Positions 1 through 31,200 of a stretch of DNA of 64,000 nt are shown piece by piece. Source of the DNA: a virus. Positions within the stretch are counted from its first letter, which is position 1, and each line of letters begins with the position of its first letter. The notes beneath the pieces were generated by a model. The model did not search any database and had not been told where the DNA came from. It worked only from the letters and a program-made list of their open reading frames with translations. The position numbers and the translations under genes were made by a program. The DNA lies in the IMG/VR virus record IMGVR_UViG_3300021171_000010, positions 9,552-73,551 of that record; one strand, written 5' to 3'.

Positions 1-7
1 GCAGAAA

Positions 8-1315
8 GTGGCGGCCCAAGACATCATGGGCGCTTCCATGACGCCCGGTTCGACGGAGCCGGCACAGTCGGCGCTTGATAAACTTTTTCAGGAGAACGAA
101 GCTCGACTGAAAGCGGCAGCGGGTGGGAAAGAGGCACCCGACCCGAACGCTACCCCCGCTACTCCGAAGACTACGGATGAGCCGGCGCCGAAGCCCGCCG
201 AGCCGGTAGCCGAGCCTAAGGCGGATGAGACTCCTGCCCCAGCAGCGGAGCCCACACCGGAGCAGAAGCGCGCTGAGGAGCTTTTCAAAGATGCGCCTAA
301 GCTTCCTACCGGCGCTAGTCCGAAGTCGGCCGAGGCCTTCAACCATGTTAAGGTGGAAGCGGCGAAAAAGATGATGGATTTGGAGAACAAACTTGCTGAG
401 ACATCGAAGGCTTTGGAAGAGGAGCGCAAGCGAGCTACCACTCCGACCACTGAGCAGCTTGAAAAAGAAAACGAGCTCAAGGAGCTCCGGAACTGGCGCG
501 CCAAGGTGGACGTTCAGTTTGACCCCGCGTTTCGAGAATTCGACAAGCAGATTTCTGAAGCGAGCGAATTTATTTACGCGCAGCTCAAGGAGTCGCCGGC
601 CATCAATGATGACCACATTAATCTTATTAAGCAATATGGTGGTCCACATAAGATTAATCTAACCAAGCTTTTCGAGACCATCAAAGACCCTACGCTGCAG
701 CGCTCGATTGAGAATCAGGTGAATGAGCTGAAGCGGATTGAATACCAGAAGGGCAAAAAGATTGCTGAGGCAAAAGACAACATCGAGACTTACACGCAGG
801 CGCGCGAGGAGCATTGGAAGAAGCAGGCAACCGCGCACACGATGGAAACTCAGAATCAGCTTACCGCGCTTTTCAAAGACAAGTCCATGGAATGGTTTGC
901 TCCAAAGAAGCCGGCTGATAGTGCGACAGCGGAGGAGAAGAAGGCCGCCGAGGCGCACAATGCTTTCATCTCAGAATTGAATGACCAGATAAAAGCCGCG
1001 GCCAATGACGATTCACCACAGATGCGCGCGGTTCTGGTCGCTGGCATGGCTCAGCTTTTCAATCTGCAGCGGGAGCATGCGAGCCTTAAGGCTCAATTGG
1101 AATCGGCCGTTAAAGAGCGTGATGCACTTTCCACTAAAATGGAAAAAATCAAGGCCTCTGCCACTACTCGGTTGCGCGAGAGCGCTGCGCCGGGCGAGGG
1201 TGTGCGGCAGCCAGCCAAGCCGGCTGTGGGTGTTAAGACGCGCACGGAAGACGCGGTTGACGCTCTGGCGCGCCAAGTGATGGAAGAGCGCCAAGCTAAG
1301 GGATTACCCGTCTGA
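8..1315 (+). CDS. Probable capsid scaffolding protein (may be 5'-truncated by the window edge)
   Basis: Pro/Ala/Glu-rich disordered N-terminus followed by long coiled coils; lies upstream of the capsid gene; the frame is open back to the window start. Confidence 0.5.
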   Translation: MAAQDIMGASMTPGSTEPAQSALDKLFQENEARLKAAAGGKEAPDPNATPATPKTTDEPAPKPAEPVAEPKADETPAPAAEPTPEQKRAEELFKDAPKLPTGASPKSAEAFNHVKVEAAKKMMDLENKLAETSKALEEERKRATTPTTEQLEKENELKELRNWRAKVDVQFDPAFREFDKQISEASEFIYAQLKESPAINDDHINLIKQYGGPHKINLTKLFETIKDPTLQRSIENQVNELKRIEYQKGKKIAEAKDNIETYTQAREEHWKKQATAHTMETQNQLTALFKDKSMEWFAPKKPADSATAEEKKAAEAHNAFISELNDQIKAAANDDSPQMRAVLVAGMAQLFNLQREHASLKAQLESAVKERDALSTKMEKIKASATTRLRESAAPGEGVRQPAKPAVGVKTRTEDAVDALARQVMEERQAKGLPV

Positions 1316-1320
1316 TTTAT

Positions 1321-2220
1321 ATGTCACTCGTTCCATCTGACCATGGTGCGGGAATCAATACGAAGCCGACCTTTCCGGCGACTTCGGTGATTCAATATGA
1401 CAAGAAGGTGCTGGTTGCGCTTCCTTGGCAGAAATCCGTTAATCCTATCACGTCTTTTTGCGTGTCCCAGCTAATGGACCGCCGGCGAACAGCGGCAATG
1501 ATTTCCTTCGGTGATGCTTTTGTGGCGCACACCAGGAACTCCTGCGCCGATGTTTTTCTTGAATCCCCGTGCGAGTGGATGCTGATGATTGATGACGACA
1601 TGATTTTGCCTTTCGGTGACCCCGGATGGTTTCGCACATACACGGGCTTTCAATTCGCTGAAAAATTCATGTCTTTGAATGCGATTGACCGGCTGATGAG
1701 TCACAAGAAAACCGTGGTGGGTGCTTTGTATTTCGGGCGTCATCCGGCGGCGCCGGCAGTCTTCAATGAAGGGCAAGCAGATAGCGCGGTGTCTGTTTAT
1801 TGTCGGCGCGGCCCGCACGATGAAATTCGCGCTACTAAGTGGGTAGGAACTGGCTGTTTGTTGGTGCATCGCTCAGTGTTCGAAGCTATTGAAAGAAAGT
1901 TTCCCAGGTTGGCTAGGAATGGAAAACGGGGAGGAAATTGGTTTACGTCTACTGAAGCCAGTGTAGTGTCTAAGCTTGAACAGATTCGCAGTGAGCTTCA
2001 GCAGGGGCCTTTGGATGGGACCAAAGCGTATAAAGCTTTGGAGGGCGTCACGGCGGCACTAGCCCTTGCAGAGCACGAGAACATGCTTGGGTTTGGTGAA
2101 GACGTCTCATTTTGTATGCGGGCAGCCGCGGTCGGGCACCCAGCGCACGTGGACCTGGGTTTGATTTGCGGCCACATTGGGCACGCCGTCTACGGGCCGC
2201 ACAACACCGGTTTGCGATGA
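1321..2220 (+). CDS. GT-A fold glycosyltransferase (GT2-like)
   Basis: 'HTRN..A..FL' segment, 'WMLMIDDDM' DxD motif, 'VGTGCLLVHRSVFE' and 'GEDVSFC..A' motifs. Confidence 0.8.
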   Translation: MSLVPSDHGAGINTKPTFPATSVIQYDKKVLVALPWQKSVNPITSFCVSQLMDRRRTAAMISFGDAFVAHTRNSCADVFLESPCEWMLMIDDDMILPFGDPGWFRTYTGFQFAEKFMSLNAIDRLMSHKKTVVGALYFGRHPAAPAVFNEGQADSAVSVYCRRGPHDEIRATKWVGTGCLLVHRSVFEAIERKFPRLARNGKRGGNWFTSTEASVVSKLEQIRSELQQGPLDGTKAYKALEGVTAALALAEHENMLGFGEDVSFCMRAAAVGHPAHVDLGLICGHIGHAVYGPHNTGLR

Positions 2221-2951
2221 GTCCCAAAATCCTAATATGCTTGGAGTTTTGGGAGGGCGACAAAGCCCAATCGATGCAGCTCGCGCGATTCATCGCCGAC
2301 CTTCAGCCCGGGCGCTGTGATTCTGCCGATTTTCTTTTCGTGTCACGTTTTGACTGTTCGCAGGATGCGGAAACAATTAAATATGTTGCTCGAAAGTTCA
2401 ACGTGCACCACTACCGCAGTCCGAAGTCTGGCACGGGTTGGCCTCATGGTTGCAATGAATTGTGGTTCGGTGCCATGGAGTGGATTTATCACATGATAGA
2501 GGCTAAGAAAGTGCCTCAATATAAGGCCATTTTTACAATCGAGGGAGACGGGCTTCCTCTGCAGTCAAACTGGATTGTGGACTTCTCTCGTAAGTGGGAT
2601 GAACTAAATGCTATAAAGCCTGTTTATGTAGCAGGCGCTATATTGAATCCCGGCGAAGACGGGGAGCACGTGAACGGCCAAGCGTTCTTCTCTGGTGACC
2701 TTCGATTTTTATTTTGGATTGTTAAACGAATTAACGGAGCTCCTTCGAATTGCGGCTGGGATTATTGGTTGCGGAAGGATTTTGCCCGATGGGGGCAGGC
2801 GCAGATGCCCGGGCTTCGTTGCTACTGGGGCACTAAGACTTTCTCACAGGAGCAGTATGAGCAGGAGCAACGAGATGGCACCGTGTGGCTGCACGGAGTT
2901 AAAGACAATTCACTATACTCAATGAGCCGAAAGAAACTCTTGAACGTATGA
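2217..2951 (+). CDS. Putative glycosyltransferase-like protein
   Basis: Starts at ATG 2217 with ATGA overlap; 'GWPHGCNELW', 'IFTIEGDG' (DxD variant), 'HVNGQA', 'GWDY', C-terminal 'WLHGVK'. Confidence 0.55.
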   Translation: MSPKILICLEFWEGDKAQSMQLARFIADLQPGRCDSADFLFVSRFDCSQDAETIKYVARKFNVHHYRSPKSGTGWPHGCNELWFGAMEWIYHMIEAKKVPQYKAIFTIEGDGLPLQSNWIVDFSRKWDELNAIKPVYVAGAILNPGEDGEHVNGQAFFSGDLRFLFWIVKRINGAPSNCGWDYWLRKDFARWGQAQMPGLRCYWGTKTFSQEQYEQEQRDGTVWLHGVKDNSLYSMSRKKLLNV

Positions 2952-3883
2952 TGGACCGAAATCGAAAAGTTTACGTGGCCGGACATCGTGGTCTCGCGGG
3001 CCGCGCAATTCTTCGGGAGCTAAATACCTTAGGATTTGAAAACGTGTTGACGATTCCGCACAATTTATTGGACCTACGAAATCAGAAGGAAGTTTTTTCG
3101 ATGTTCAAGCATGAGCGCCCCGATTACGTTTTTCTGTGTGCAGCTAAGGTGGGTGGAATTGTGGCGCATCTCAATTCGCCTGTTGATTTTTTGGTGGACA
3201 ATCTGGCCATCCAAACGAACGTTATGCAGGCGGCTAAGCAATGCGGCGTGGAAAAGCTTTTATTCTTGGGGTCTGCGTGCGCGTATCCGAAGTTTGCGCC
3301 TAATCCAATCAAGGAAGAGTATCTACTTACCGGCGAACTTGAGCCTTCAAACCGGGGGTATGCTCTGGCGAAGATTGCGGGCATTGAAGCGTGCAAGGCA
3401 TATCGAAGGCAATACAATTGTGATTTTATCGCGTGTATGCCAACTAACTTCTATGGGCCGGGCGACAACTATCATGCAGAAAATTCGCACGTTATTCCTG
3501 GCATGATACGCAAACTGCACGAAGCCAAAAAAGCAGGCGTCTGCAAAGCTGTATTGTGGGGGACCGGATTCCCGGTTCGTGAATTTATCTATTCCGACGA
3601 CTTGGCCCGCGCGTGTATTTTTCTCATGAATAATTACAGCAGCGGGGAGCTTATAAATTTAGGTTCCGGGGAGAATGTGACCTTGCGCGAATTGGCGCGT
3701 CTGGTAGCGGCCGCGGTGAATTACCAGGGCGATGTTATCTGGGATACGGAGAAACCGGACGGAACCCCCGAGCGAAGGCTAGATAATTCCAAGCTTTTTG
3801 AAATGGGCTGGCTGCCGACTGTTGGACTGGGCTATGGTTTGCTAGAAGCCTACAAAGATTTTTTATGCCGAGAGCACTTATAA
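2948..3883 (+). CDS. fcl: GDP-L-fucose synthase (GDP-4-keto-6-deoxymannose epimerase/reductase)
   Basis: 'VAGHRGLAG', 'AAKVGGI', '[10 protein letters not shown]', 'YALAK', '[11 protein letters not shown]', 'SHVIP', 'WGTG.PVREF', 'KPDGTP'. Confidence 0.95.
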
Positions 3884-4815
3884 CTGGAATAACCGGGCAG
3901 GATGGTAGCCATCTTGCTGAATTGCTGTTGTCAAAAGGCTATGAGGTGCATGGCATCATGCGCCGGGCTAGCACCTTCAACACGGCGCGTATCGACCACA
4001 TATGGGATAAACTGTATATTCACCATGGTGACCTAACGGATTCGGGCAATCTCTCGCGCATCGTTCACACAGTGGCGCCGGATGAGGTTTACAACTTGGG
4101 TGCGCAGTCGCACGTGAAGGTGTCCTTTGATGTTCCGGAATATTCTATGGAAGCGACCGGCGGCGGCTCGCTTCGATTGCTGGAAGCGGTGAAGGAATTC
4201 GCTCCTGGCGCTCGGTTTTATCAAGCGAGCTCGTCCGAGATGTTCGGCTCTTCGCCCCCGCCTCAGAATGAGTCCACCCCGTTTCATCCACGCAGCCCTT
4301 ACGGATGCGCAAAGGTTTTCGCCTACTGGACCGCGGTAAATTATCGAGAAGCTTACAAAATGCATGTGAGCAACGGGATTTTATTCAACCACGAGGGACC
4401 GCGCCGCGGAGAGACTTTTGTTACGCGAAAAATTACCCGGGCTGTGGCTCGAATAAGGAAGGGGCTGCAGAAAGAGCTGGTGCTTGGTAATCTTAATGCT
4501 CTTCGTGATTGGGGGTATGCCGGCGACTTTGTGGAGGCTATGTGGTTAATGGTGCAGAAATCTTGGGCTGATGATTACGTTATTGCTACGGGCGAGATGC
4601 ATACGGTGAAGGAATTTATTGAGCTCGCTTTCGATTATGTGGGCCTTCCCTGGGAGCCTTACGTGAAGACGGACCCTAAATATTTTCGTCCCTCTGAGGT
4701 GGATGCGCTGCAGGGCGATGCGACGAAAGCGTTTAAACAGCTCGGGTGGAAACCTAAAACTTCGTTTGCTGACCTTGTGGCGATGATGGTTGAGAACGAC
4801 CTAAAGATAGTATGA
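3865..4815 (+). CDS. gmd: GDP-mannose 4,6-dehydratase
   Basis: '[12 protein letters not shown]', '[13 protein letters not shown]', '[10 protein letters not shown]', 'PRSPYGCAK', '[20 protein letters not shown]', 'RDWG.A', 'RP.EVD'. Confidence 0.97.
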
Positions 4816-5543
4816 ACAATAATACGATGGTTGTAGTTTGTGGATACGCGGGGGACGCGCATCAGATTCGAAATTTGATGCCTTATTATTTACACCATCG
4901 TTGTCCTGTCCTCATTTTGTCCCCTTCAGATTCTCCCATCACGCCCCAGCAGCTTCCTATCCGTAGAGAGCTTGGGTTTTTGACTGGGGGTAAGCGTGCA
5001 TACACCGGCCAAGAATCTCTTGACCGTCAGATTGAGCACATGCGATTGATGCTACGGTGCCCGGCTGAGTATAAATTTTTTCTCGCTCATGATTCGGATT
5101 CTGTTGTGTTGAGCCAAGAGCTTCCTAGCTATATCTACAATGAGCCCGATGTTCTGTGGTCAAATGAAGTCAGCGATGCGATGCATGACCCTCACCGACC
5201 GGCGGATTATTCATATCCGCATCTTGCTTTTCAGCCGCCATATTTTATGTCGCGAGGGGTCATTGAGCGTTTGTTAAGCGTAGCGCCGGCGGTGAAAGCG
5301 GACCCGCACACGCCCTTTATCGATTGGGCAATGATGGCCTGGGCCGTTAAGGCGGGGATTCCACACAAGAATTTTATTGAGGGCGCCAGTTGTCCCACTA
5401 CTCCTGGCTATGGTATTGACACGATGAAAGAACTTGTTGAAAGGCATGGGCGGTATTTCGTCCATTCGGTGAAAACCCCCGAGGCGTTGAAGACATTGGT
5501 GTGGGCTCGCGTAGCTTTTAAGAATCGTTTTAGGAAGGGTTGA
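4812..5543 (+). CDS. Putative glycosyltransferase-like protein
   Basis: N-terminal beta-alpha nucleotide-binding-like pattern, 'FFLAHDSDS' DxD motif, 'YFMSRG', terminal 'VHSVK'; translationally coupled to gmd. Confidence 0.55.
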
Positions 5544-5635
5544 GTGTCTACTTTAGAATACACACTATTATCTCAGCTATGGGGGGATATCCCCCGGGGC
5601 CGCAGTTGCAGGCAGCGCAGGACTGTTAATCCAGC

Positions 5636-6136
5636 ATGCAAGTATCTGGCAATAGTGGAATTAGAGCAGGGAAGTTCTCCACTTCCCTTAAGATAGTCCC
5701 ACCCATAACCACGGCAAATTATTCGGCGGGCCAGAGCCTGGGAGGGCTCATAACATTGTCCAATGCTGTTAGAATAGCGGGCCAAGGTTCCACGCTGTCC
5801 AGTATTACGGTGGCGGACAACTCTAGGCAGAATGCCGCTTTTTCTATTGTGCTATTTGATGCTAAGCCCACTACAGCCACAATCACAGACCACGTAGCTT
5901 TTTCGTTTGGGGCAACAGATATTGCCAAAGCTGCCGCACTTTTTCCTATTACATCACAAGAATATGTGAATATAGATTCGGGGTCATCAATCGCGACCGT
6001 CCCGGGAATTAATGTTTACATAAAGAATAATGAGAATACTTTATTCTTATATGCAGCGCTCGTGGTAGCTGCTGGAGGCCCGCACTATACTTCAGTTTCT
6101 TCACTACAATTCATATTCGCGTTTTCCCAGGATTAA
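5636..6136 (+). CDS. Ser/Thr-rich beta-strand virion protein, paralog 1 of 3
   Basis: Shares 'P.I.T..Y..G..GGL.TL.NA', 'D.S.Q.A...I.LF', 'TDH..F.F', 'LYA' with 6140-6601 and the C-terminus of 8213-9118. Confidence 0.6.
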   Translation: MQVSGNSGIRAGKFSTSLKIVPPITTANYSAGQSLGGLITLSNAVRIAGQGSTLSSITVADNSRQNAAFSIVLFDAKPTTATITDHVAFSFGATDIAKAAALFPITSQEYVNIDSGSSIATVPGINVYIKNNENTLFLYAALVVAAGGPHYTSVSSLQFIFAFSQD

Positions 6137-6139
6137 TCA

Positions 6140-6601
6140 GTGGACAACACCAACTCAGTTGTAATAATTTTGCAACACCCTACAATTTCAACTGCTGCGT
6201 ATCAGACTGGTTTTGTGGTCGGGGGTCTTCAAACTTTATCGAATGCTTTGTCTTCGAGACAAACGGGAATTTTGAATTCTTTGCGTGTGCTCGATAGGTC
6301 TAATCAAAGGGCTCCTTTAGATGTGATTTTATTCAGCTCCCAACCCACAGCCGCAGCCACAGTAGACCACGCAGCGTTTTCATTTTCTACTGATGATTTG
6401 AAAGTCATTGCCATAATTTCAATTCTCACCACGGATTATGTGACTGTTGGCGGTAAGGCCTTGGCCACAGCACCTAACCTGGGACAATCTCTTGCGGTGC
6501 CTAGTGGGACCACGCTCTACGCCGTTGCTGTGACTTCTGGGACTCCTATATACACCACTGCAACGGACATTCAATTTGTTTGGGGATTCATTACAGATTG
6601 A
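6140..6601 (+). CDS. Ser/Thr-rich beta-strand virion protein, paralog 2 of 3
   Basis: Highly similar to the C-terminal ~150 aa of 8213-9118 (PTISTAAY/PTISTSAY, TGILNSL/TGILESL, STDDLKVI, GTTLYAVA.TSGTP). Confidence 0.65.
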   Translation: MDNTNSVVIILQHPTISTAAYQTGFVVGGLQTLSNALSSRQTGILNSLRVLDRSNQRAPLDVILFSSQPTAAATVDHAAFSFSTDDLKVIAIISILTTDYVTVGGKALATAPNLGQSLAVPSGTTLYAVAVTSGTPIYTTATDIQFVWGFITD

Positions 6602-6633: not shown

Positions 6634-6787
6634 GAGCCTTAAAAAGGTCCCGCCCCGGCTCATGCGGGAAGTTGCCTATTGCTGTTGGCCGCAGCGAAAA
6701 AGAAAACTGAGCGAGTCCAGTGTTTAGACCGCCCGGGCAAATTTCGGGGCACCGGCTGACAGTCCCCAGCAATTGTTAGGCAATTTT
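6634..6787 (+). promoter_or_regulatory. Structured 5' leader of the major capsid gene
   Basis: GAGCC(6634-38)/GGCTC(6657-61) and TCCCGC(6648-53)/GCGGGA(6664-69) interleave; TTGCCTA-TTGCTG(6672-84) pairs with CAGCAA..TAGGCAA(6767-83) just before ATG 6788; ACTGTTA motif at 6622-28. Confidence 0.55.
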
Positions 6788-8104
6788 ATGGCTTTTTTCT
6801 GCGATAATCCTAGCGCGATTTCTGATATTGCGTCAAAGGATACAAACCGCATCGTGGGCACCATCGCTAAAGCGCTGGCCGCGAATGCTCCTTTCATGAA
6901 CGTCATTCAGGGCGGAGTGTTTCCGTCTGGCACGTCTGACGCTATCCGGTCCATCGTCCAGATGCAGGCCGCTCCGGGCGACTCCCTGGCGGTTCCTAAT
7001 TTCGTCTGCGATACCGACATCTGCGGTCAGACTGGTATCCAGGACTTGACAGATACCGTTGAGTTTACCCTCCGGCTGGAAAGCTTCAGGGGTCGTGGTC
7101 CAAACATCTGCGTTAAGAAAGGCTACGCGGCCTTCAAAGGCAGTTATGTGATGGCTGAAGACTCGCTGAAGAAACTCGTTGTGCAGTATATCAACGCGGA
7201 CATCCGCGCTCAGTTATACCTGCGCTCTGCGAGCAAATTCACCGCGAATGCTGGCTATGATTTCAACTCGCTGTTCACCGGCGGTTTGGAAACTGACTTG
7301 GGTGTCAAGTTTGCGCCCCTGTTGCCTACCGGCCCCATGACCTTCAAGGCCTTGCATTTCATTGCGCGATATATGCGCGAGGTTCTTTTCGCCGAATGGT
7401 ATTCGGCCGACCAGGGCATGCCCCATTTTCGGTTCATCGGCAGCTCCGACCAAGTGGAATATTTCCGGTCGGAAGTCGGCGTGCAAAACGTCATGATTGG
7501 TTTGACCACTGGCGGTTATAAGCTCGGCGAGGAAACCCTCACCGCTTATTCCTTCGAACAGAGCCCTGCTTATCGGGGCATCGCGTTCGGTGTTGACCAG
7601 CGGCCTTTGCGGTCCACCGGCTTTAACGCTGATGGCACCCTGGCGCTGATTAACCCTATCACCATCGTGGCGAATCCTGCGCGCGGCGTTGCTTTCGCTA
7701 AGCCCAATCCGGCTTGGCTGAGCGCTCCATATGAAGTGGGTTTTCTCATCGCTGATGGCTCGTTTGAGCGTTTGGTGCCCGAGAAGTATGTTGGCGAAGG
7801 TTCCTTCAAGTTCGCGCCTCAGTTGCACATGGGCGAGCTCGAATGGCACTATATCATCGACAATCAATGTAATCAGTGGGGCGACTTTGGATGGCACAAG
7901 TATCAGATTACTCGCGCCTACCGGCCTTTGCGCCCGCAGCACATCGTGCCGATTCTGTATGGACGCTGCACCGCCGACCTGGGCTTGGTGGCTTGCGCTA
8001 ATCCTACTACCAGCACCTTCAGTGGGGCGTTCAGCTACACTAACGTGGGTGTTTGCGGCGACAATGAATCGCCTGTGATTGGGCCTGGATTCCCCACCCT
8101 CTGA
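6788..8104 (+). CDS. Major capsid protein
   Basis: 438 aa, codon usage typical of a highly expressed gene, own promoter and leader upstream, strong hairpin downstream, located downstream of the scaffold-like gene and before fibre genes. Confidence 0.75.
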   Translation: MAFFCDNPSAISDIASKDTNRIVGTIAKALAANAPFMNVIQGGVFPSGTSDAIRSIVQMQAAPGDSLAVPNFVCDTDICGQTGIQDLTDTVEFTLRLESFRGRGPNICVKKGYAAFKGSYVMAEDSLKKLVVQYINADIRAQLYLRSASKFTANAGYDFNSLFTGGLETDLGVKFAPLLPTGPMTFKALHFIARYMREVLFAEWYSADQGMPHFRFIGSSDQVEYFRSEVGVQNVMIGLTTGGYKLGEETLTAYSFEQSPAYRGIAFGVDQRPLRSTGFNADGTLALINPITIVANPARGVAFAKPNPAWLSAPYEVGFLIADGSFERLVPEKYVGEGSFKFAPQLHMGELEWHYIIDNQCNQWGDFGWHKYQITRAYRPLRPQHIVPILYGRCTADLGLVACANPTTSTFSGAFSYTNVGVCGDNESPVIGPGFPTL

Positions 8105-8140
8105 GCAAATCTAGCTCTCCCTGAGAGCTAAGCAGAAACG

Positions 8141-8172
8141 AGGGGCGCACAGTGGTCAGGCTGTGCGCCCCT
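8141..8172 (+). terminator. Strong hairpin after the capsid gene (terminator or mRNA stabiliser)
   Basis: AGGGGCGCACAG-8 nt-CTGTGCGCCCCT perfect 12-bp stem; no canonical U-tract. Confidence 0.55.
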
Positions 8173-8212
8173 TAATAAAAACTGACAAACATTTTATCCG
8201 TTAGGCGAATTT

Positions 8213-9118
8213 ATGGCATTCACCGAAGACACAGGCTTCAAGACCGGGGATTCTCTTTGGTCTCTCACTCGCAAGATTCTTTCTCGTCTCAACCAGGGTA
8301 TATCGACATCCGGAGGTGGTGGAGGTGGTGGGGGTGGCGGTCCTACTCAAATTCAGGATGGTGGTGGTAGTGGAGCTCTAGCAACCGTAACGGCGGCTAA
8401 TGCCGTTAAAACCGATGGAAGCGCAGTAACACAACCTATTTCCAATGCAAACCTGGGCAATCTTGACGTTTCTCTCTCTACTCGGCTGAAGCCCGCGGAT
8501 ACTCTTACCGCAGTCACTACGGTAGGAACTATCACGAATCCCGTCACAGTAGCACAGGCCACTGCGGCTAATCTCAAGGTAGATTTATCCGGCACGGGCG
8601 CCAATGCTACGGCGTTGAAAGTGGATGGCAGCGCGGTGACACAGCCAGTTAGCGGAAACGTGGGAGGTAAGACCGCCGTAATTAAAGCCAATCCGACTAT
8701 CAGCACGAGCGCCTATTCGGCCGGCTTCACTGTAGGGGCAATCCAAACTCTTGCGAATGCGTTCACCTCACAGAGCACAGGAATTTTGGAATCTTTGATT
8801 CTACTCGACAAGTCTAATCAGAAAGCGCCGATGGATATTCTGCTTTTCGATGCGAATCCCACCAACGCAACAACCACTGACCATGCGACTTTTGTAATCT
8901 CCACAGATGATTTGAAAGTGATTGGCCGAGTATCTGTAGCTGCGGGCGATTACGTAACCATCGCGAGCGGTGAGGCAGTGGCAATTAAAACCGGCCTGGG
9001 AATCGCGCTGAAGGCCGCGGCTGCCGGCACTACTCTCTATGCTGTGGCTATCACGTCAGGCACGCCCACTTATTCTGCCACTGCGCTGCAGTGGGTTTGG
9101 GGAATCCTGCAAGACTGA
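8213..9118 (+). CDS. Virion fibre or decoration protein (poly-Gly linker, DGSAVTQP repeats, C-terminal paralog 3 of 3)
   Basis: G10 linker, two 'K.DGSAVTQP.S' repeats, C-terminal domain shared with the 5636 and 6140 ORFs. Confidence 0.65.
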   Translation: MAFTEDTGFKTGDSLWSLTRKILSRLNQGISTSGGGGGGGGGGPTQIQDGGGSGALATVTAANAVKTDGSAVTQPISNANLGNLDVSLSTRLKPADTLTAVTTVGTITNPVTVAQATAANLKVDLSGTGANATALKVDGSAVTQPVSGNVGGKTAVIKANPTISTSAYSAGFTVGAIQTLANAFTSQSTGILESLILLDKSNQKAPMDILLFDANPTNATTTDHATFVISTDDLKVIGRVSVAAGDYVTIASGEAVAIKTGLGIALKAAAAGTTLYAVAITSGTPTYSATALQWVWGILQD

Positions 9119-10689: not shown

Positions 10690-10877
10690 TAAAGAGGATT
10701 TTGGAAAACGAAAAACTACTTTTTGCCGCCCTCGGTTTTAATGGTGTGCTGGAAGGAATCAGGCACATTATTGTGAAATACCAACCCGAACTTACTGCTT
10801 TGCTTACGCTTTTACAGATAGCTATCGCGGCGCTTACCTTGGCGCACTTGGGTAAAAAACTCCTGAAGAAAAAATGA
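10686..10877 (+). CDS. Holin-like small membrane protein
   Basis: 63 aa, hydrophobic helices, basic C-terminal tail (KKLLKKK). Confidence 0.45.
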   Translation: MIKRILENEKLLFAALGFNGVLEGIRHIIVKYQPELTALLTLLQIAIAALTLAHLGKKLLKKK

Positions 10878-11626
10878 AAAAAATCCTGACCTTACTTGCG
10901 TTATCCTCGTTCTTGTTTACTGGGTGCGCTCTTATTCCTAAACCGGTTGAGTTTTTCCAGAAGAAAGTGAAATCCTTCCCCGAGCCCACTTCTAAGCAGG
11001 TGGAAGTTCAGAAACAAACTGCACAACGGGCTAAGGAAGCGGCTCAGGCTACCCTAAGCACCGCAGTGGATGAGGGCGCTAGCACAAATCTTGTGGCGAC
11101 TGCCAAAGATACCGCGGTGCTCACCGACGCAGTTTCGACTTCTCTGGGGCCGCCCGTGAAACCGTCTGTGGCGCCCGCGCAGGATTTGTCCACAGAGCTT
11201 TTGACCCAGGTAGCGAAGCTAAACCGAAAGATTGATGCTTTCGCTGAAGCAAACGAAAAGGTGGAAGGTAAAAAAATTGAAGGCACCGGAGTTTTTTCGG
11301 TTCCTTACTTCGTGTATGCCGGCGGATTTGTTTTGCTTGTGGTGGTTGGATGGCACTTGGCTAAAACTGCCTTGATGGCCGGTTCGATTGCTAATCCGGC
11401 GATTGCTCCCCTACTGGGCCTTGCAAATGGCGGCATGAACGCTGCCGGTGCCGCGGCGGGAAAGGGACTGCAACAGGTGGTTGCGGGAGGCTCCGCATTT
11501 CTTAAAAAATTGGAAACGGAAGTGACAGACCCCGCGCTCCGACAAAGAGTGAAAGACCTTTTCGTGGCGGCACACAAAGAGGCTCAGGATGCGGATGTGA
11601 AAGTGCTTGTTGACAAGCTTAAATGA
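10874..11626 (+). CDS. Lipoprotein with internal transmembrane segment (spanin-like)
   Basis: Signal peptide II lipobox 'LFTGC', coiled-coil region, TM segment 'YFVYAGGFVLLVVVGW'. Confidence 0.55.
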   Translation: MKKILTLLALSSFLFTGCALIPKPVEFFQKKVKSFPEPTSKQVEVQKQTAQRAKEAAQATLSTAVDEGASTNLVATAKDTAVLTDAVSTSLGPPVKPSVAPAQDLSTELLTQVAKLNRKIDAFAEANEKVEGKKIEGTGVFSVPYFVYAGGFVLLVVVGWHLAKTALMAGSIANPAIAPLLGLANGGMNAAGAAAGKGLQQVVAGGSAFLKKLETEVTDPALRQRVKDLFVAAHKEAQDADVKVLVDKLK

Positions 11627-11818: not shown

Positions 11819-13018
11819 ATGCCTGGAGACACTGGAAATTGCACCGATTGCGGGACTTGTAATCCACAAAACCCCAATCCTATCGATACTTGCGGCCGGT
11901 CGTTGCTGCAGTGTGACAACCCTTGCCGTTCGCAGCCGGGAAACACGGCAGCTTGTGAATCGCTCCCCAGCCAGATTCAGAATTTCACGCTCCAGTTTTT
12001 CGGCACAGTGGTCAAGACGGAAGTAAATGGTGTGGTTCAGTGGCTTCTGCCCTGCAGTCTGGACGTTGGTTTGCCGGCGAATCCTCGCGGAGTGGATGAG
12101 GGTTTGGCTTGTTATTTCCTTAGGCTATTTCAAACGGGGATTACCGGTTTGCAGGGGCCGCCCGGAGCGCGCGGCCCATCGGGTTGTGACGGACGAAACG
12201 CATACACTGTTACGCTGCAGGCCTTTTCTCAGCCAAGTTTGGGAAGCCCAATCGCCCAGGTGCTGACCCAATACAATCCTGCCATTTTGACGGGCCTATC
12301 TGTTTACATCGCGGGGTCTGGGTGGTATCGAGTCACTCAGGCAAATTCTGATGGCACCCTTTTTCTGTCCTTGGAGGAGTCGCTTGTCAATGCGCCGTCA
12401 AGCATTCCGGCGGGTTCGTTGGTGGTCATCGCTGGCGAGCCGGGCGCACCTGGGCTTACCGGACCGGTTGGACCCCAGGGGCCTCAAGGTTTGCAGGGCG
12501 GTCAGGGTCCTGTTGGACCTATCGGGCCGCCGGGAATTCAGGGACCTCCGGGAACGCCGGGCAATACTCCCGTGCTCGCTTTTGGGTTTGCCCATGGCAC
12601 AGATAGTGGCGGCGCTGATGCTAGCGTAGGTAGCTCTTACGCCGCGTTGAATTTTGGACCGGGAACTTTCGGATTTGTTGCTGTTGCGACAGGAACGTAT
12701 TTCATCACGGTGGTGCTCACATTTAGCGTAACGCAGAATGATAATGTGGCGCCTAATCTGATTCCATCTCCGTTTGGCAAGTTGGTAAATATCACAGCCA
12801 GTGCAGACATTGCTTCTTCGGAGGTTTCAGTCACACCGTCCAAGATGGCATCGTTGCCTGGAGTTACACAAGTTCAATTGACAATTAGTTCAATTGTAAC
12901 TGTAGGCGCGCCGAATACATCAATCGGAGTTTACACTAAAGCTAACGGAATCGCGGGCTCTAGCTCGGTGACTGCCATATCGGCACAAACAGTAATTAAT
13001 TGGGTGAAAATCGCATGA
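11819..13018 (+). CDS. Collagen-like fibre protein with Cys-rich N-terminus
   Basis: G-X-Y repeats ([10 protein letters not shown]...), Cys-rich start, beta-rich C-terminal head. Confidence 0.8.
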
Positions 13019-13353
13019 AACAAATGGACCGAGATTTGAATATGTCGGAGATGGGGCCGGATAGCCAGCCCGAGATGCCGAGAAACGACCACTATCCCAC
13101 AATTCATTTTGAGGGGCCGGAGGAACTCGGCTTGCCGGAGCACGGCACGATGCTAGTTCATTACAAGGTAAAGCGCGAGGTGGAAACGAAACACCCCCCG
13201 GACCGGCACTGGTATTCTTGCGATATCGAGATTCGAAAAATTTGTGGGGCTGAAGCAGAGAAAGATATGCGACCCTCTAAACGTGATACATCAGCAGAAG
13301 ACAGTTTGGACAGGCTGATGAAAGAGCGCGAAGAGGGCGGTTCACGTGAGTAA
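13015..13353 (+). CDS. Small acidic hypothetical protein
   Basis: ATGA overlap with the upstream gene; 112 aa, highly charged. Confidence 0.55.
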
Positions 13354-14911
13354 TCAGGGACCGGTGGGGCCTCAAGGTCCGGTTGGGCCTCAAGGAGCTC
13401 CTGGCGTAGTGGGACCAGTTGGTCCGCAGGGCTCCACAGGCCCTCAAGGTTTTGACGGGGCTCAAGGTGTTCCTGGACCGATTGGCCCACAGGGTGCCAC
13501 AGGTCCGCAAGGTGTCCCTGGACCGGTTGGTCCACAAGGCGCCACAGGCCCTCAAGGGCCGGCTGGCAATGGTGGGACCGGAGTAGTCAGCACTAGTAAT
13601 TTCTACAACATCAAGACTGATTTTGGTGCTTTGGGGGACGGAACAACTGATGACACAATTGCCATACAGAATGCTATTAACGTCGTAGCTGCCTCGCCTG
13701 CTGGTGGGACAATCTTTTTTCCCAATGGTGTCTATATAATCGGCGGAGCCATGCGAGGAAGTGGAGCGTATCAAGCCCAGTTGCTTATACCTGAAATTCC
13801 AAACTACCCAAACCAAACCACGCTTATTCGATTTGTCGGTCCCGAGATGCCGGCACAAGGTCTCCCAGTAATTGCCTCTTTACCGAATGCTTTTGGCGGC
13901 GCTGTTTTAAAAAGCACCTTAGCTTCTACTGGAGGCGGCACCAATGCTGTAATCGCTACTGTTCGAAATACGGTTCCTAATTTTAACAACTTTAATTCCG
14001 TGTCAATAGATATGGAGAATCTGACAATCCAAGTGTCAGATAATCCTCAAATTTCTGGATTAAATTTCAGAAAAGCAGTTTGTCTCCGCCTGCGCGGGGT
14101 CACCGTTTACACGGGAGTGGCGCCGTTTTCATCCTCCAAGCCCACACTTACTACTTCCATAGGCGTTGTGACGCCTGACAACAACAACGGAGCTTTTACT
14201 AGGCTTGACGACACTGTTGTAAGTGGTTTTTATACTGGGTATGAGCTGAATGAACATGCTTGTGGCAATAATGTATGCGCATATTATTGTTTTCAAGGGG
14301 CTACAGTTCCTTTTGCATACCATGCTTTGCATTTCGAGCGTATTCTTTTGGTTCATTGTCCTCATGGGCTTGTGTGGAGCGGAGCATCCAGACTTGATGT
14401 AGAACAACTGGACGTTGAGTATTCTATGGGGGATTGGGCTGTTCTGGTTTCCAATTTGGATGACCCGGGTTCGGTGGCTTCAGGCAATATTCGATGGGCG
14501 GCTGTTCAGGGGGGCACTGGTCCCACTATTGGGGTAATCCATTCTTTTCCAAACGCGGCACCGTTGATTCATCTGCAAGAACTAGGAGATGGATTGCTTA
14601 CCAGCAGTGCAGCCGCAACAGTTTCCGGCCCAACTGTGCTGGATTTTTCTGGGGCTCCCCTTCAAACATTTATAATGTCAGGAGATGTCTCTTTTACTAC
14701 TCAGACCAGACGCGCCGGCGCTTTTTTGAGTGCGCGCATGCTTCCTAATGGGGCGGTTCGTTCAGTTCTTTTTCCGGCTGGGTGGACTTGGTTGGGGGTA
14801 GACAATAGCGCGGGATTATCTTTGCCAGTAGGAAAAACTGGGGTGTTATCTCTCACGTGTTACGGCCCGTTGGATTCGGATGTTGTGGCGGTCTATGCCG
14901 TTTCTCCCTAA
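13346..14911 (+). CDS. Collagen-stalked tailspike or depolymerase (pectate-lyase-like beta-helix)
   Basis: N-terminal GPQ repeats, then '[25 protein letters not shown]...[11 protein letters not shown]' typical of beta-helix spikes. Confidence 0.8.
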
Positions 14912-25253: not shown

Positions 25254-28200
25254 GTGCCTACGTTTACCGCACCTGACGGTTCGCCTGTTACTTTGACCCC
25301 AGAGCAGCAGACTCAAGCGCTTAGCCTTGCATCTGCTGCTACTCCCGAAGCTACTTTCACTCGGCCTGACGGCACTCCCGTCACATTGGCACCTGAGCAG
25401 CAATCTCAGGCGTTGCAACAGGCCCAATCTCCCGCGCCGATGCTTAGCCGGCCGGATGGCACGCCCCTGGACGTCACAAGTCTTCATGCTGAACAACTGG
25501 CCGAGTTGAATAAGCAAGAGCCGGGTTTCGACCTCCCGTCCGTGTGGAATTCCCTGCCCGCGGAACAAAAAACACCTGACGCGCTAGCGAGATTTTCTGA
25601 AGCTTCGCACCTCGTGCATCAGCAGCCTTTTTCGTTGCCTACGGTGACCAAGATGCTTTCCAATCTCTGGCAGCTTGCCAAAGGGGGCGGCGAGATGATT
25701 TCCAACCTTGCCAAGGGTGGCGCTTTGATAGTTGGTGGATATCCCGGCGCAGGCACCTGGATGGACCCCCAGAAGGTTAAGGAAGTTCAGCAGGGAATCG
25801 CCGAAGGATGGTCTGGAACAGAGAGCGCGGTGACTGGACTCGCCAATCAACTCAAGGAAACAGTGGTGCGGCACGTCATTCAGCCGCCTAACACACTGGA
25901 CCCGGCGGTTAAGCAGCAGAATTTTCTTGATGAGGCTGCGATGGCAGACCAGCAGTCTCAAATTCTAAAAGGTCGCGGCGAGTTCATGAATCGAGTTGGT
26001 GGCGATGAAATATCTTATTTGGAGTCACAGGGATTTCCGGTTCGCCCAGAGCATGCTGCTAATCTTGCTCAAGTGGACCCATTCACTTTTTATCTTTTTG
26101 GCAAAGCCTTTGACGCATTGCCGGCGGCTACTAAAGCGGCTATTCCCACGCCGATTTTAGACGCAATTCAAAAAGCCAGCGATACCGCGACCGATACCGC
26201 CAAACAAATCGTGGGCGGAGGAGCTGCTGCGACTGCTGCAGTGCTGCAAGGTGTAGGCGCGGGCGTGACTAAAGCGGCTCCGCATATTGGGCGCCCCGCG
26301 GCTGCGATTGCCGGCGGAATTCATGCCGGCGTGCCGGGCGCGGTCACGGGACTGGTTTTCGGCAAAGGCATGACCGAATCCCTGTCTGAGATGGGGAAGA
26401 AAATTGCTTCGGCAGCTAAAGGCACCGCTAAATTCGGTGAAGGCGTGTCCAGCGAGGCGGCTACCGGACCGGTATCACAGGCTGCCAAGGACATTATTGA
26501 AGCTGCGCCCGGCGCATTAGCTGGTGTCGCTCAAGGCGCCGCTTTAGATGTGGGACTTCAGGCGGCCACAGCAGAGACGCCGCAGCAACAGCAAAGCTTC
26601 ACCCCGGTGGGGACCGCCATGGGATTGACTCATGGTGCTATGTCTGCTGGCAAGTGGATGCTCGGCGGCCAACTTGCAGGAGAGCGGAACTGGGGCGCTA
26701 CCGCAGGTGTGCCAAATTCGGCAGCGTTTCCCGCGCTGAACACTCTCCACAACGCCGCAATGTCTGCTGCGCCCCCTAAGATTCAGGAAAGAATCAGGGC
26801 GATTCAGCAGCTTAAGCAGGGAGTCAATCCTAACACTGATGTTTTCTACATCCCCGACCCGGTGGGTGTGATGGCTGCTCTGGGTGCAACTCCGGGTGCG
26901 GAACAGCATGCTTTTCAGGCCGGCGCCGCGAATGGAGTTTTCTTGAAGGATTTGCCCGGAGCGAATGGGCAGAAGCGCAACGCAATCATCTTCCAGAACG
27001 TAGATGCGGCCCCACACGAAGCAGTGCACGCGATGGATGCAGCTCTCGGAGCGGAAAGAGTAAATGAGCTTAATCAGTCTGCTAAATCAGACTATGGAGA
27101 CCTTTGGGACCAATTTACCAGTCATTACGCCAATTTGCTCAATGGAGGACAGCCACTTCCTGAAGGCACTACGCCAGGAGATTTTCTGCTTCAGCAATCA
27201 GGATTTGGCCCTGAGGCAGCCCGGAATAAAACCGGCGGAGACGGGTCAGATTGGCAGACTGCTCTGACACCAGACGAAAAGCAAAACGCGATTGACCGCT
27301 ACATCGGCGCCGAGATTCGCGCGGAGAACGGGGACGCGTATTTCAAACGCACGGGCGGCAAAGCGCCGGGATTCACAGACAAAATGGCGAATGCTGCCGG
27401 CGAGCTCGTAAGCCTGCTAGGTGGAAATCCCTTAGAGGGACGCGTTAGCAGCGGACTTCAACTACCGTTGCGATGGGACACGTTTAAACAGGCTGGTCAA
27501 ACTCTTGCCGAGGCCCGGGCTAATGTTCCTCCTGCTTTGCGGCCTGTAGCTAGAACGCCACTAACTACTAAGACGGTGCCGACCACGCCGGAGGAAATCC
27601 AGCAGAATGCGGATGACGCAAGAGTAATTGCTGGACAGCAGCCGGCAGAGAAACCGACTGGCGCCGAGGGCGAGCAGTCGCCCAAAGAAGCCCTGGGAAC
27701 AGTTGCTGAAGCGATTGCAAGCCAGTCCCCAGTGCGATATCAATACCGCGGGGCCGCCGGCGAAACTCCTACAGGGGGAGCCTTGGAAACTGATGTTTCG
27801 CAGCGCCAAGCCGAAATAGCCAAAGCTCAAAACGTGTCTGAGACCGACCGAGATCTTTTCGAGCGCGTCGGATTCCCATACAAAGTAGAAATGACCGGCA
27901 AAGGTCCTCAAGTTCTAGACTGGGCGCCCGTAAATCTCGCCGCAAATGCTTTTCGTTGGTCCAAAGCTCTGTCAGAACTAGCCAAGAAAAATCCAAATGC
28001 TCCGGAGCTTGCACGCAATCCATTTGCATTAGATGTCGCGAAAGGCGAGTTCACAACTGAAGGCTGGCATGATTTGTTAGACACTGCACAGAAAGTATCT
28101 GCAAATCAACTTGCCGGATTTGGCGGGGCTGGACAGAAAATCGTTGTGCCGTCCGATTTAGGGGCTGCGAACGTCTATGCACCGCCTCGTGTTTCTGAAA

Positions 28201-31200
28201 CTGCTCCTTTTCAAGTTGACCAAGCGAAAGCAGATTTTATTAACATGCTTTATGGGGAACGTCCGCCAGAGACACCGCGTGTGTCTCGCAAAAGCGGCGT
28301 CCCCGCCAATGTTGTGGCGCAGAAAATCTCTGCCGCTACTGAGCCCGGAAGGGTAGTTGAGCCAGCGAAGATTCGAGCAAAGCCCAAGCAGGCCGCCGGG
28401 CTTGGCGTGGAACCTGGGACGTTAATAGAGCGCGCGCCATTCAAAGAGCCAATTTTGGGTGTGCCTACCATCCAGGAAGTAAATCCCACCCGAGGTGCTT
28501 TAGAAAATGCCCTGCAGTCCGCCGGTGTTGAAATCCCCAAGATGACAAAAGTCATCCGCCGGTTGAACCTGGAACATATCCATTCAGTTCAACCGGAACC
28601 AAATCTGCCGCGGACCGCGGGCGCCAATGTTCTAACCACCACTGCCGGCTTTATGCCGGTGACGGATTTTGTTGACCGGCTTGATAAAACCTCGCCGGAT
28701 GATTGGCGAAACATGGTGACCAATTATCAGGGCCGATTTGGGGGTGGACAGACCGGTTTGTCAATAGAGGTTGGGGCTGGGGCAAAAAGTCCTGAGGAAG
28801 TGGCAGCTTTGCAATCTGCTACGGAGCGCCAAAGTGAACTAATGCGCGGGGCTTTAAAGAACAGAGATTTTCAAACTGCCGCGGGATATGCGATTAAGGC
28901 GCAGGCAGCTAGAGAGGCTCATGAGGCCGCTACTGGTGGCGGAGGGATGCCAGATTTTCTGCAAAGGTATCACCCCGAGGCTGGATATAAACCTCCGTTT
29001 CCTGAATCGACTTTACAAGCTGCGCCGCGGAATGAAGATGTGGCCAAAGTGGCAGAGGATTATGTGGGCCGACCGCTGCGTCCCATCGGCAATTTGCCAA
29101 TCAGCCCCGACTTAGGCAAGCGCCTCGCGGACTTCGCACAGGAAGCGCAGCACAATCCGGATGACCCTGCTGTGAAGGCTAGTTATGGTGCGTTGAACGC
29201 GCAGATTAAACAGCAGTATGACGCAATCCGGAAAGCGGGCTACACTGTAGAGCCGTGGACCGGCGCAGGCGAGCCTTACAAGTCCAGTGCCGAGATGTCT
29301 GCAGACGTGCGCGACAACAAGCACCTTTTCTTCACGCCAACTGCGCGCAGTTTTAGTGGCCAAGAAAACAACTTGATGCTACAACCCTCTGGCGTGGGTG
29401 ATTTAAGTCATAATGATTTATTCCGCGCGGTGCATGATTTCTTCGGCCACGCCAAGGAGGGGTTGCAGTTTGGTCCCCGGGGTGAATATAATGCTTGGCG
29501 GGAACATTCCCAGATGTTCAGCCCGGAAGCTCAGGGCGCCTTAGCTGCCGAGACTTTGGCTCAAAACGCTTTCGTAAATTTCGGTAGTCATCTCCGCAAC
29601 GCGGAAGGAAACATACCGGCAGTGGGAGAGCCCGGGTATGTTCCGCCTGCTCAGCGACCTTTCGCGGAACAAAAAAATTTCGTGGTGCCCTCCGAACTCA
29701 GGAAAGCCGCACAATTTCAACCACTTCCTCCCGGTGCTGGCAAAGCTCTTGATTGGCGTGACTTAGGGAACGATACTCTTGCTCCCGGCCTTCACATCGA
29801 AGCTATCGCTGGAAAGCCTCCTGCTGTTCCGATTTCTCAGCTCCAAAAAGAGGGCTGGAAAACGATGGACTTTCAAGATAATGGAAGCTTCCATGATTAC
29901 GACAATCGCCCCGTTTTTTACAAAGATAATACGGGAAAATTTCCCGTAACTCCTGATGGAGTAAAGGCGGCTTCTGAGGCCGCTAGTAAAGCTTTTGATG
30001 AAGCTCAAAATTTAGCGTTCGAAGACCGATATGGCGAAGGCCCCGTTCAATATCAGCCTAGACCAATCGAAGAGGCGCGTAGCGAGCCGAAAACGATTCT
30101 AATTCGCCACGGAACGACTGCCCTGAATAACACTGACCCGACCAAAGATTTAATCCGCGGGCACAAAAACGTTCAGCTTAGTGAAGAGGGCCGACAGCAA
30201 GCCGCGGAGCTGGGGCAGCAGCTTAAAACCTCTGGTATCTCCAGAATTTATTCCTCTGATTTAGACCGCACCATGGACACTGCCAAGGAAGTGGCCAAAA
30301 CCACCGGTGCGCCTATAACGCCCGATGCTAGACTAAGGCCCTGGAAACTTGGAAGCACAATCGAAGGAAAACCGACAGCGGATATGCTGCCTAGAATCAA
30401 ATCTCTTACTGAGAGTCCAGATGAACGACCGCCCGGCGGAGAGACCTTCAATGAATTCAAGGACCGTTTTCTTGAAGGCTATCACGCAATCCAGGACGCG
30501 CATCCGAATGAGCACACCGCTATAGTGACTCACTATCGCGGCACGAAGTTGATGGATGCTTGGCGTGCCGCCGGCGTGGATAATGACGAGGTGAAACCAG
30601 ATGTTTTCGATGCATATGACCCGCACAAAAAACCGGGCAGTTATCAGGTGCTCGACAAGCAAGGTAATGAGCTACCTCTAGATACCGCTCGCCCGGAGGG
30701 AGCTCCAATCACTCACCTCTCTGATGCTGAGTTGAACTCGGCGCCGGGCATGACGCGCGAGCAGACTCTGGCAGCCGAGCGAGGGGGAACCCAGCCAGCA
30801 CAGTTCAAGCCTCGTGAGAAACAGGAAAAAGAAATCGAGCTGCGCCACTGGTCAAACATTCCGGGACTCAAAGTGCTTGACCCTCGTTTTCATGGCACCG
30901 GCTTGAGTGGTGAGGAACGCGCCCGAGCCCGTGACTACAAAGAAATTTACGTGCCTCGCACCTATTTTGGAACGAAGGATTACACCAAAGAGCCGAACCT
31001 GGGGCCAGAGCAATACCGCGCTTTTGTGCAGCGCAGCAAGCTCTACCCGTTTCAGGAAGACCCCAAAGATTTGTGGCCCACGCCGGAGGAAGTGGAAAAG
31101 GCCGGATACGCGCCGATGGACTCTCGCGCGGCGAATACGCTTTACGAAAATAAGATTGCGCAGGCTGGTTATGAGGGCTATATTCACCGTGATGCAAAAG

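Follow-up and report, generated by a model that had tools for sequence, protein, structure and literature searches.

A 64,000-nucleotide (nt) stretch of viral DNA, comprising bases 9552–73551 of the 73,551-base virus record IMGVR_UViG_3300021171_000010 and hereafter called the window, carries a cassette of five genes for sugar-nucleotide synthesis and glycosyl transfer at positions 1321–5543, between genes resembling those for a scaffold and a capsid protein. This arrangement raises the question of which molecule a phage would glycosylate with genes kept among its head genes. The source is clearly a tailed phage judging from its gene content, and this phage of approximately 73.5 kb belongs to an uncultured soil clade. 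With somewhat better than even confidence, the best reading is that the cassette is a phage cytoplasmic protein-glycosylation module in the head operon, which would place a fucose-containing glycan on a virion protein. A preliminary description of the same DNA had reported the cassette and proposed a system of virion fucosylation; its observation was largely confirmed, and its interpretation is partly supported by the results below.

Organization of the cassette

The cassette consists of five open reading frames (ORFs) on the plus strand, namely GT1 (1321–2220), GT2 (2217–2951), an fcl-like gene (2948–3883), gmd (3865–4815), and GT3 (4812–5543). Each gene overlaps the next, with ATGA at 2217/2220 (GT1/GT2) and 4812/4815 (gmd/GT3), ATGATG at 2948/2951 (GT2/fcl), and 19 nt at 3865/3883 (fcl/gmd). 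The extent of the cassette and the coupling of its five genes agree with the preliminary description. GT1 starts 5 nt past the stop codon of a scaffold-like ORF, and the cassette genes are translationally coupled to this structural gene. A GC-rich palindrome (5582–5596), read from the sequence, lies within the 92-nt gap that follows GT3.

Hydropathy analysis revealed no 19-residue window above 1.4 on the Kyte–Doolittle scale, and no membrane segment, in any of the five cassette proteins; for GT1, GT2, and GT3, no such window exceeded 1.0. By this measure, GT1–GT3 are predicted to be soluble and free of a membrane anchor. The cassette proteins also gave no matches to GtrA-, GtrB-, or Gtr(type)-like families in the Pfam and PHROG scans. 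The location of the genes had earlier been taken to argue against lysogenic O-antigen conversion, and the lack of membrane segments in all five proteins supports that argument with respect to Gtr-type conversion.

Sugar-nucleotide enzymes

The gmd product matched PF16363 at 9e-133 and the NCBIfam model TIGR01472 with 485 bits against an equivalog cut-off of 415, the latter match covering positions 3–341 of 342. The best sequences in the PDB were GDP-mannose 4,6-dehydratases (3e-130). Enzymes of the short-chain dehydrogenase/reductase (SDR) family have an N-terminal glycine-rich dinucleotide motif and a Tyr-x3-Lys catalytic pair, and both were present in the gmd translation, aligned with those of the solved plant enzyme. 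These features identify the predicted product as a bona fide GDP-mannose 4,6-dehydratase.

The fcl-like gene was annotated as encoding GDP-L-fucose synthase (GDP-4-keto-6-deoxymannose 3,5-epimerase/4-reductase). It matched PF01370 at 8e-60 and NF047922 at 1e-122 over positions 2–304 of 308, yet it scored 409 bits, short of the 500 set as the equivalog cut-off. GDP-L-fucose synthases made up all of the 18 best PDB matches (2e-92 to 1.5e-40), the first of which spanned residues 5–306, and the next class, GDP-mannose 3,5-epimerase, followed at 8e-22. From these matches, the gene very likely encodes Fcl. The conversion of GDP-mannose to GDP-L-fucose by Gmd and Fcl, as claimed earlier for this gene pair, is therefore well founded in the gmd score above the TIGR01472 cut-off and in the nearest PDB sequences of the fcl-like gene. 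The cassette had also been called self-contained, which did not hold: no NTP_transferase/ManC gene was found in the 73.5-kb record by a search whose control matched 14 of 14 genomes. Because the record has no ManC-type gene, GDP-mannose must be supplied by the host.

A sugar donor of this kind could in principle serve a non-structural target, either the bases of the phage DNA or host proteins modified as a takeover function; we regard this explanation as very improbable. That phages encode transferases which glycosylate DNA is well established (PMC12619734). A MazZ-like dNTP diphosphohydrolase domain encoded in the replication module of this phage also hints at nucleotide-pool manipulation. 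However, the 73.5-kb record contained no thymidylate-synthase-like hydroxymethylase gene (PF00303, E ≤ 1; the control matched 10 of 14 genomes), and no PurZ-type gene was found. Moreover, the cassette lies on the structural strand and is coupled to head genes, whereas the replication genes occupy the opposite strand at 34–59 kb, and no case in which GDP-fucose serves as the donor for DNA modification is known to us. The lack of a thymidylate-synthase-like gene is thus in line with the earlier argument that the location speaks against DNA modification.

Glycosyltransferase candidates

The three remaining cassette proteins gave no Pfam match even at E ≤ 10, no NCBIfam match, and no PDB match by phmmer. 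Profiles built from their families (36–41 relatives each) found nothing significant in the PDB, and no relation was detectable by hhalign between the GT2 and GT3 families or between the GT1 and GT3 families. Three transferase families outside Pfam coverage are thereby defined. They share an invariant acidic motif of the DXD type, which follows a beta-strand in the models of GT2 and GT3.

GT2, regarded as a core GT-A glycosyltransferase of an unclassified family, was modeled by AlphaFold2 from its family alignment with a predicted local distance difference test (pLDDT) score of 97.2. The top Foldseek matches in the PDB were GT-A enzymes alone (down to 2.4e-8), and its viral neighbors in BFVD were glycosyltransferases of phages and giant viruses (2.2e-8). 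Whole-chain comparison by VIA gave Z values of 16.5 for CHPF (root-mean-square deviation (rmsd) 3.4 Å, 208 residues), 15.8 for B3GalT6, and 15.2 for xylosyltransferase 1 (XylT1). The motif E109-G-D111 follows the strand formed by residues 102–108, and D111 was invariant in 39 sequences. GT3, regarded as an accessory GT-A glycosyltransferase with a GT31-like fold, was modeled with a pLDDT of 95.7. Foldseek matched it to B3GNT2 at 8.5e-9, and VIA gave Z values of 18.4 for CHSY3 (rmsd 3.4 Å, 217 residues), 16.8 for B3GalT6, and 16.3 for C1GalT1, with GT31-type enzymes 2–3 Z units above all others. Its D94-S-D96 motif stands after strand 89–93, and D94 and D96 were invariant in 41 sequences. GT2 and GT3 are therefore predicted with confidence, from these models, to have GT-A glycosyltransferase folds.

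Compared with GT31-type enzymes (B3GNT2, B3GalT5/6, C1GalT1, and the GT31-like domain of CHSY3/CHPF), the models of GT2 and GT3 agree in whole-chain fold, with Z values of 15–18 and an rmsd of about 3.5 Å over approximately 210–225 residues, and carry a DXD-type motif after the equivalent strand. In contrast, sequence identity to these enzymes is 7–12%, no Pfam match was obtained at E ≤ 10, and GT2 and GT3 appear soluble, with neither stem nor anchor. The Pfam families that would mark membership in CAZy GT31 by sequence, Galactosyl_T and Fringe, were not matched by GT2 or GT3 at E ≤ 10. As modeled, the likeness of GT2 and GT3 to GT31 is at the level of the fold only.

GT1 is a candidate for the second core glycosyltransferase. 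Its residues D91, D92, and D93 (DDD 91–93) were invariant in 36 sequences, and a weak match to phrog_34859, annotated as "glycosyltransferase," was found at 5.4e-4. Structural neighbors of its Atlas model (pLDDT 0.71) included clusters with PF00535 at template modeling (TM) scores of 0.59–0.60, and below the Pfam threshold the families Fringe, Anp1, and GT2_3 appeared in 7, 2, and 1 of the 36 family members, respectively. These leads, which fall short of proof, suggest that GT1 probably has a GT-A fold. A GT1 profile search gave 1127 matches, and the 120 listed were all close relatives with neither Pfam domains nor informative names. When GT1, the only one of the three searched in this way, was compared by tblastn with 50,697 phage records, mycobacteriophages included, no match was found at E ≤ 0.01. 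Where the preliminary description had named three glycosyltransferase-like ORFs, structure prediction thus bears out GT2 and GT3 as GT-A enzymes, and for GT1 there are the leads given above.

Conservation and variability of the locus

Related loci were collected with the capsid candidate encoded downstream of the cassette (6788–8104) as the query. This search yielded 80 viral loci in which the capsid candidate was 70–93% identical, of which the 52 that extend at least 6.5 kb upstream were assessed and the other 28, being too short, were left out; counts over the 52 loci include near-duplicates. GT1 and GT2 homologues lay between the scaffold-like and capsid-candidate genes in every one of the 52. 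The full gene set of the window was found in 16 loci, and fcl and gmd stood together upstream of the homologous capsid candidate in 17, which was the synteny check proposed in the preliminary description. Three loci had gmd with no fcl-type gene. GT3 was present in 36 loci (0–2 copies), and GT1 and GT2 were the only cassette genes in 14.

Median identities were 57% for GT1, 43% for both GT2 and GT3, and 87% for the capsid candidate; judged by these values, sequence change has been much faster in the transferases than in the capsid candidate. Scaffold-like homologues (35–51% identity) precede GT1 in relatives. The order of scaffold-like gene, GT1, GT2, and capsid candidate was the same in loci whose capsid candidate was 74.5% (L086), 67% (L084), and 47% (L090) identical; in the last of these, GT1 and GT2 were approximately 30% identical and were recognized by family hidden Markov models (HMMs) at 6e-55 and 4e-53, respectively. 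The locus L084 is a 26.5-kb contig binned in a metagenome-assembled genome labeled Candidatus Peribacteraceae, which was the sole genome match and may represent either a host hint or a binning artefact.

The claim that the cassette sits between scaffold and capsid genes stood as far as position is concerned, since the position was kept in 52 of 52 relatives, while the name scaffold was given by position and composition and the name capsid on grounds other than family or fold. The comparison with relatives ties the cassette to the head genes considerably more strongly than a single sequence could.

The periphery of the locus is variable. A separate set of 52 loci with matches to the scaffold-like gene, GT1, and the capsid candidate resolved into 37 distinct islands, which contained fcl-type and gmd-type genes, a third type of SDR sugar enzyme (10 members), Polysacc_synt_2, polysaccharide pyruvyl transferases, further unclassified ORFs, and homing endonucleases. 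In three loci (L058:8064-9083, L081:8157-9110, and L056:6337-7479), a polysaccharide pyruvyl transferase or a Polysacc_synt_2 (CapD/PglF-like) dehydratase replaced gmd/fcl, implying that different lineages make different glycans. Endonuclease VII-type ORFs (a cluster of eight) and one GIY-YIG/NUMOD3 homing endonuclease were also located in islands (L005:5377-5784, L016:9296-9799, L027:9376-9819, and L041:5538-6146), and these island endonucleases may drive module exchange. One gmd of 694 amino acids (aa) (L047:6445-8529) comprises two Gmd stretches split by a weakly LAGLIDADG-like insert, a candidate intein or homing-endonuclease insertion.

A transferase pair fixed beside head genes and accompanied by a variable periphery is unlike a casual "moron" insertion, and it implies selection for glycan diversity. 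By analogy, the island behaves across the clade like an O-antigen locus, with two fixed transferases and swappable modules for sugar synthesis and transfer. This modular variability is shared with O-antigen and capsule loci, in which Gmd, Fcl, and GT-A enzymes are typical, and so it also suits an explanation in which the cassette remodels a glycan of the host envelope during infection (that of the lipopolysaccharide (LPS), the capsule, or the S-layer), for instance so that superinfection is blocked or progeny do not stick to debris, and in which adjacency to head genes merely provides late expression. A pectate-lyase-like tailspike, suggesting a polysaccharide-coated host, and a small serine recombinase at the start of the record are further points in its favor. 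However, Pfam and hydropathy analyses revealed neither a membrane protein nor a flippase, a polymerase, or an initiating transferase in the cassette. GT1 and GT2 keep their place between the scaffold-like gene and the capsid candidate even where the latter is only 47% identical, unlike movable conversion modules, and translational coupling links the genes to a structural gene. We therefore consider envelope remodeling unlikely.

Head genes and candidate acceptors

The ORFs upstream of the cassette follow the order expected of a head operon. Within the 9.5 kb before the window, a 644-aa ORF with weak similarity to large terminases (best E value, 3e-5; 18–63% of the query covered) is followed by a 708-aa portal-sized ORF, for which tblastn against phage records found no match, then by a 116-aa ORF, and then by the scaffold-like ORF that enters the window. 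The scaffold-like gene (1–1315, plus strand) begins 70 nt before the window, at record base 9481, and encodes about 461 aa. Its product is charged, of low complexity, rich in Ala, Pro, Lys, and Glu, and free of Cys, with 11% Ser + Thr, and it had no family match in Pfam or PHROG. Its position and composition suggest a scaffold role.

The scaffold-like protein, another transient assembly factor, or a free oligosaccharide used for assembly could itself be the acceptor, leaving the mature particle glycan-free. The start of GT1 only 5 nt past the scaffold-like gene favors this explanation, as does the co-variation of scaffold-like divergence with that of the transferases (35–51% identity vs. 70–93% for the capsid candidate). 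On the other hand, the scaffold-like protein contains only 11% Ser + Thr, and to our knowledge there is no precedent for a glycosylated scaffold or transient assembly factor. The chance that the glycan is confined to such a factor is judged to be very small.

The probable major capsid protein is encoded by a 443-aa ORF (6788–8104, plus strand; 438 aa counted from the ATG at 6788). It is the most conserved gene of the neighborhood, with 70–93% identity across relatives, and its position is canonical, after the terminase-like, portal-sized, and scaffold-like genes. An Atlas feature match (score 0.97), which is a language-model lead, placed it with a cluster in which 41% of the members carry PF13252 (Phage_capsid_3). 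In an independent soil RNA library, a 1602-nt contig was identical to 6655–8256, covering the capsid-candidate gene and its flanks, and a 262-nt contig was identical to 261–522, inside the scaffold-like gene; both contigs may stem from DNA carry-over. Gene order, conservation, the language-model lead, and the RNA-library contig, which are grounds other than fold, together suggest that the product of 6788–8104 is likely a capsid protein. Its C-terminal tail contains Ser and Thr and varies in length and sequence past the conserved stretch. A search of the phage records by tblastn gave no match for the capsid candidate, and a search of the record for PF13252 found nothing, though the control for that search was equally silent.

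No contigs identical to 1321–5543 were found in the single RNA library examined, a result that is uninformative either way. Against gmd, the same library gave just 24–40-nt pieces with 2–3 mismatches, which probably came from other organisms.

Three proteins encoded around the capsid candidate are rich in Ser and Thr, as noted in the preliminary description: p166 (5636–6136), p153 (6140–6601), and p301 (8213–9118), all on the plus strand, with 22%, 24%, and 23% Ser + Thr, respectively. The protein p166 may be an accessory component of the virion and is a candidate for the acceptor, and p301 has an N-terminal half bearing a Gly run and repeats and a C-terminal p153-like domain. Identity is 56% over 147 residues between p301 and p153 (8e-54) and 39% between p166 and p153 (9e-27); p166 and p153 are paralogues of each other and of the C-terminal half of p301. 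At the C-terminal end of an alignment of the p153 family (19 sequences), a motif is conserved. None of the three had a family match, and p301 gave no match by tblastn.

A hairpin with a 12-bp stem, including nine G-C pairs, lies at 8141–8172, 37 nt past the stop codon of the capsid candidate, and it presumably acts as a terminator or stabilizer. The presence of this strong hairpin also speaks for the capsid assignment. A near-identical motif of approximately 15 nt precedes the start codons of the capsid candidate and p301 (6771–6795 and 8199–8220), with no obvious Shine–Dalgarno sequence; it may be a shared translation-initiation or regulatory element.

Proposed function

In the favored reading, a protein-glycosylation module acting in the cytoplasm, Gmd and the Fcl-like enzyme would convert host GDP-mannose to GDP-L-fucose. 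The soluble enzymes GT1 and GT2, as core transferases, and GT3, as an accessory one, would then assemble a short glycan containing fucose directly on a virion protein, in the cytoplasm and while particles assemble. Late co-expression with the head genes, the order of transfer, and the use of GDP-fucose by one of the transferases are suppositions of this scheme, as is the choice of a virion protein as the acceptor. The likeliest acceptors would be the capsid candidate, through its variable C-terminal tail, the Ser/Thr-rich proteins of the p153 family, or collagen-like fibers encoded further downstream; among these, the tail of the capsid candidate and the collagen-like fibers are universally present. 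Swappable modules would give related phages different surface glycans.

Several observations weigh against this reading. The glycosylated virion protein is itself a prediction from gene content. The capsid candidate had no Pfam or PHROG match, none of its 36 distant relatives matched either database, two capsid-candidate profiles, one of them deep, found nothing in the PDB, and the protein contains merely 12% Ser + Thr. The p153 family is absent in many relatives that keep the island and therefore cannot be the obligatory acceptor; it comprises the Ser/Thr-rich proteins to which the earlier proposal pointed. In 9 of the 52 loci, fcl occurs without gmd, so that relatives do not follow a simple sugar logic. 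Because glycan extension is the usual role of GT31-like enzymes, an initiating protein O-transferase would not be among the identified cassette enzymes. The subclades of GT3 in a tree tracked gmd + fcl weakly (10 label changes vs. a shuffled mean of 13.2, a value reached in 25 of 500 shuffles). Finally, the homing endonucleases in the islands of relatives mean that part of the variability may reflect a mere recombination hot spot. The assignment of GDP-fucose to GT3 by phylogeny was dropped, the association being weak.

A broader and more tentative interpretation, which we hold to be possible but less probable than not, is that an O-antigen-like glycan locus is hard-wired into the head operon of an abundant, uncultured clade of soil phages of approximately 70–75 kb. 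Two unclassified GT-A transferases would have stood beside the capsid gene since before the 47% divergence, and through exchangeable modules (fucose here; other deoxy-sugar, pyruvyl, and further ones elsewhere) each lineage would acquire a capsid "serotype" of its own. With regard to abundance, GT1 comprised more than 1,100 clusters at 90% identity and the capsid candidate 196 clusters at 50% identity. If this interpretation is true, the diversity of phage-particle glycans would be under selection in soil, for instance as a means of evading lectin-like defenses or grazers or of tuning adhesion to particles and the biofilm matrix. An unrelated and widespread clade of soil phages would then glycosylate its virions with its own nucleotide-sugar supply. 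The compact five-gene cassette could also be used to test cytoplasmic protein fucosylation in bacteria.

Comparison with known glycosylation systems

By analogy, the nearest functional precedent is the virion O-glycosylation of mycobacteriophages, which encode their own glycosyltransferases and bear glycans at the C-terminal ends of their capsid and tail-tube subunits (Freeman et al., 2023, Cell Host Microbe, as cited in PMC12619734 and PMC13313380). The mycobacteriophage system resembles the present one in that a tailed phage encodes its own transferases, and the capsid candidate here has a variable C-terminal tail. The systems differ in that GT1 had no sequence similarity in the phage records searched by tblastn, the genes here lie in the head operon, and the island includes nucleotide-sugar enzymes and is modular across the clade; in addition, the present phage is from soil. 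Mycobacteriophage glycosyltransferase genes lie elsewhere in their genomes.

Chloroviruses and prasinoviruses encode GDP-D-mannose dehydratase together with GDP-L-fucose synthase, and fucose occurs in the glycan of the capsid protein, as stated in PMC3602175. The same pair of enzymes is encoded here. However, those are giant viruses of eukaryotes, whose capsid has a jelly-roll fold and whose genes are dispersed, whereas the present genes form a compact, overlapping five-gene cassette in a tailed phage of approximately 73 kb. Bacterial O-antigen and capsule loci likewise place Gmd/Fcl beside transferases and have modular, hypervariable content in a fixed place. In contrast to them, the phage locus lacks Wzx/Wzy/Wzz, an ABC transporter, and an initiating phosphoglycosyl transferase and is set in a head operon. 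No tailed phage with gmd/fcl next to capsid genes was found in the literature searched, whose coverage did not extend to most subscription journals.

Other features of the phage genome

Near-identical DNA to the window was absent from the phage records searched, and promoter and terminator scans gave counts at chance level. Downstream of the cassette, the plus strand encodes collagen-repeat tail fibers and a pectate-lyase-like tailspike. Two collagen-repeat genes lie at 13346–14911 and 11819–13018 (both plus strand), one of them also with a pectate-lyase-like domain (PF12708, 1e-13); the products are probably fibers or a depolymerase tailspike and are alternative candidates for the glycan acceptor. 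The N-terminus of a 250-aa protein encoded at 10874–11626 (plus strand) resembles a signal sequence with a lipobox, and a strongly hydrophobic segment lies around residue 140 (Kyte–Doolittle 2.18); from these features, the protein is predicted to be a lipoprotein inside the structural operon, and homologues were found in many relatives. A giant ORF of 2636 aa on the structural strand (25254–33164, plus) contains a histidine-phosphatase domain (PF00300, 3e-33), DUF3293, and DUF7178 and may encode a multi-domain internal or ejected virion protein.

The minus strand at approximately 34–59 kb encodes a DNA polymerase and a helicase along with RuvC and exonucleases; a sigma factor, an RNA ligase, and several HNH endonucleases are also encoded there. 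The MazZ-like dATP/dGTP diphosphohydrolase N-terminal domain of this module (PF18909, 5e-25) is located next to a DUF4406 protein, the two ORFs of the pair lying at 51551–51988 and 51985–52365 (both minus strand). Neither a PurZ-type adenylosuccinate synthetase nor a thymidylate synthase was found to accompany the MazZ-like gene, and the pair may serve nucleotide-pool manipulation or base modification of some kind. The small serine recombinase mentioned above is an invertase-like ORF (L003:249-977; PF00239, 1e-24).

Four or more paralogous HNH endonucleases (phrog_99) and an ORF with an AP2 domain were identified at 36676–37167, 40549–41031, 50881–51366, and 34353–34835 (all on the minus strand) and at L003:3530-4003 (plus strand). 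One HNH gene is wedged between the DNA-polymerase ORF (41028–43004) and a 738-aa ORF that had no match (38330–40546), and the polymerase gene may therefore be split.

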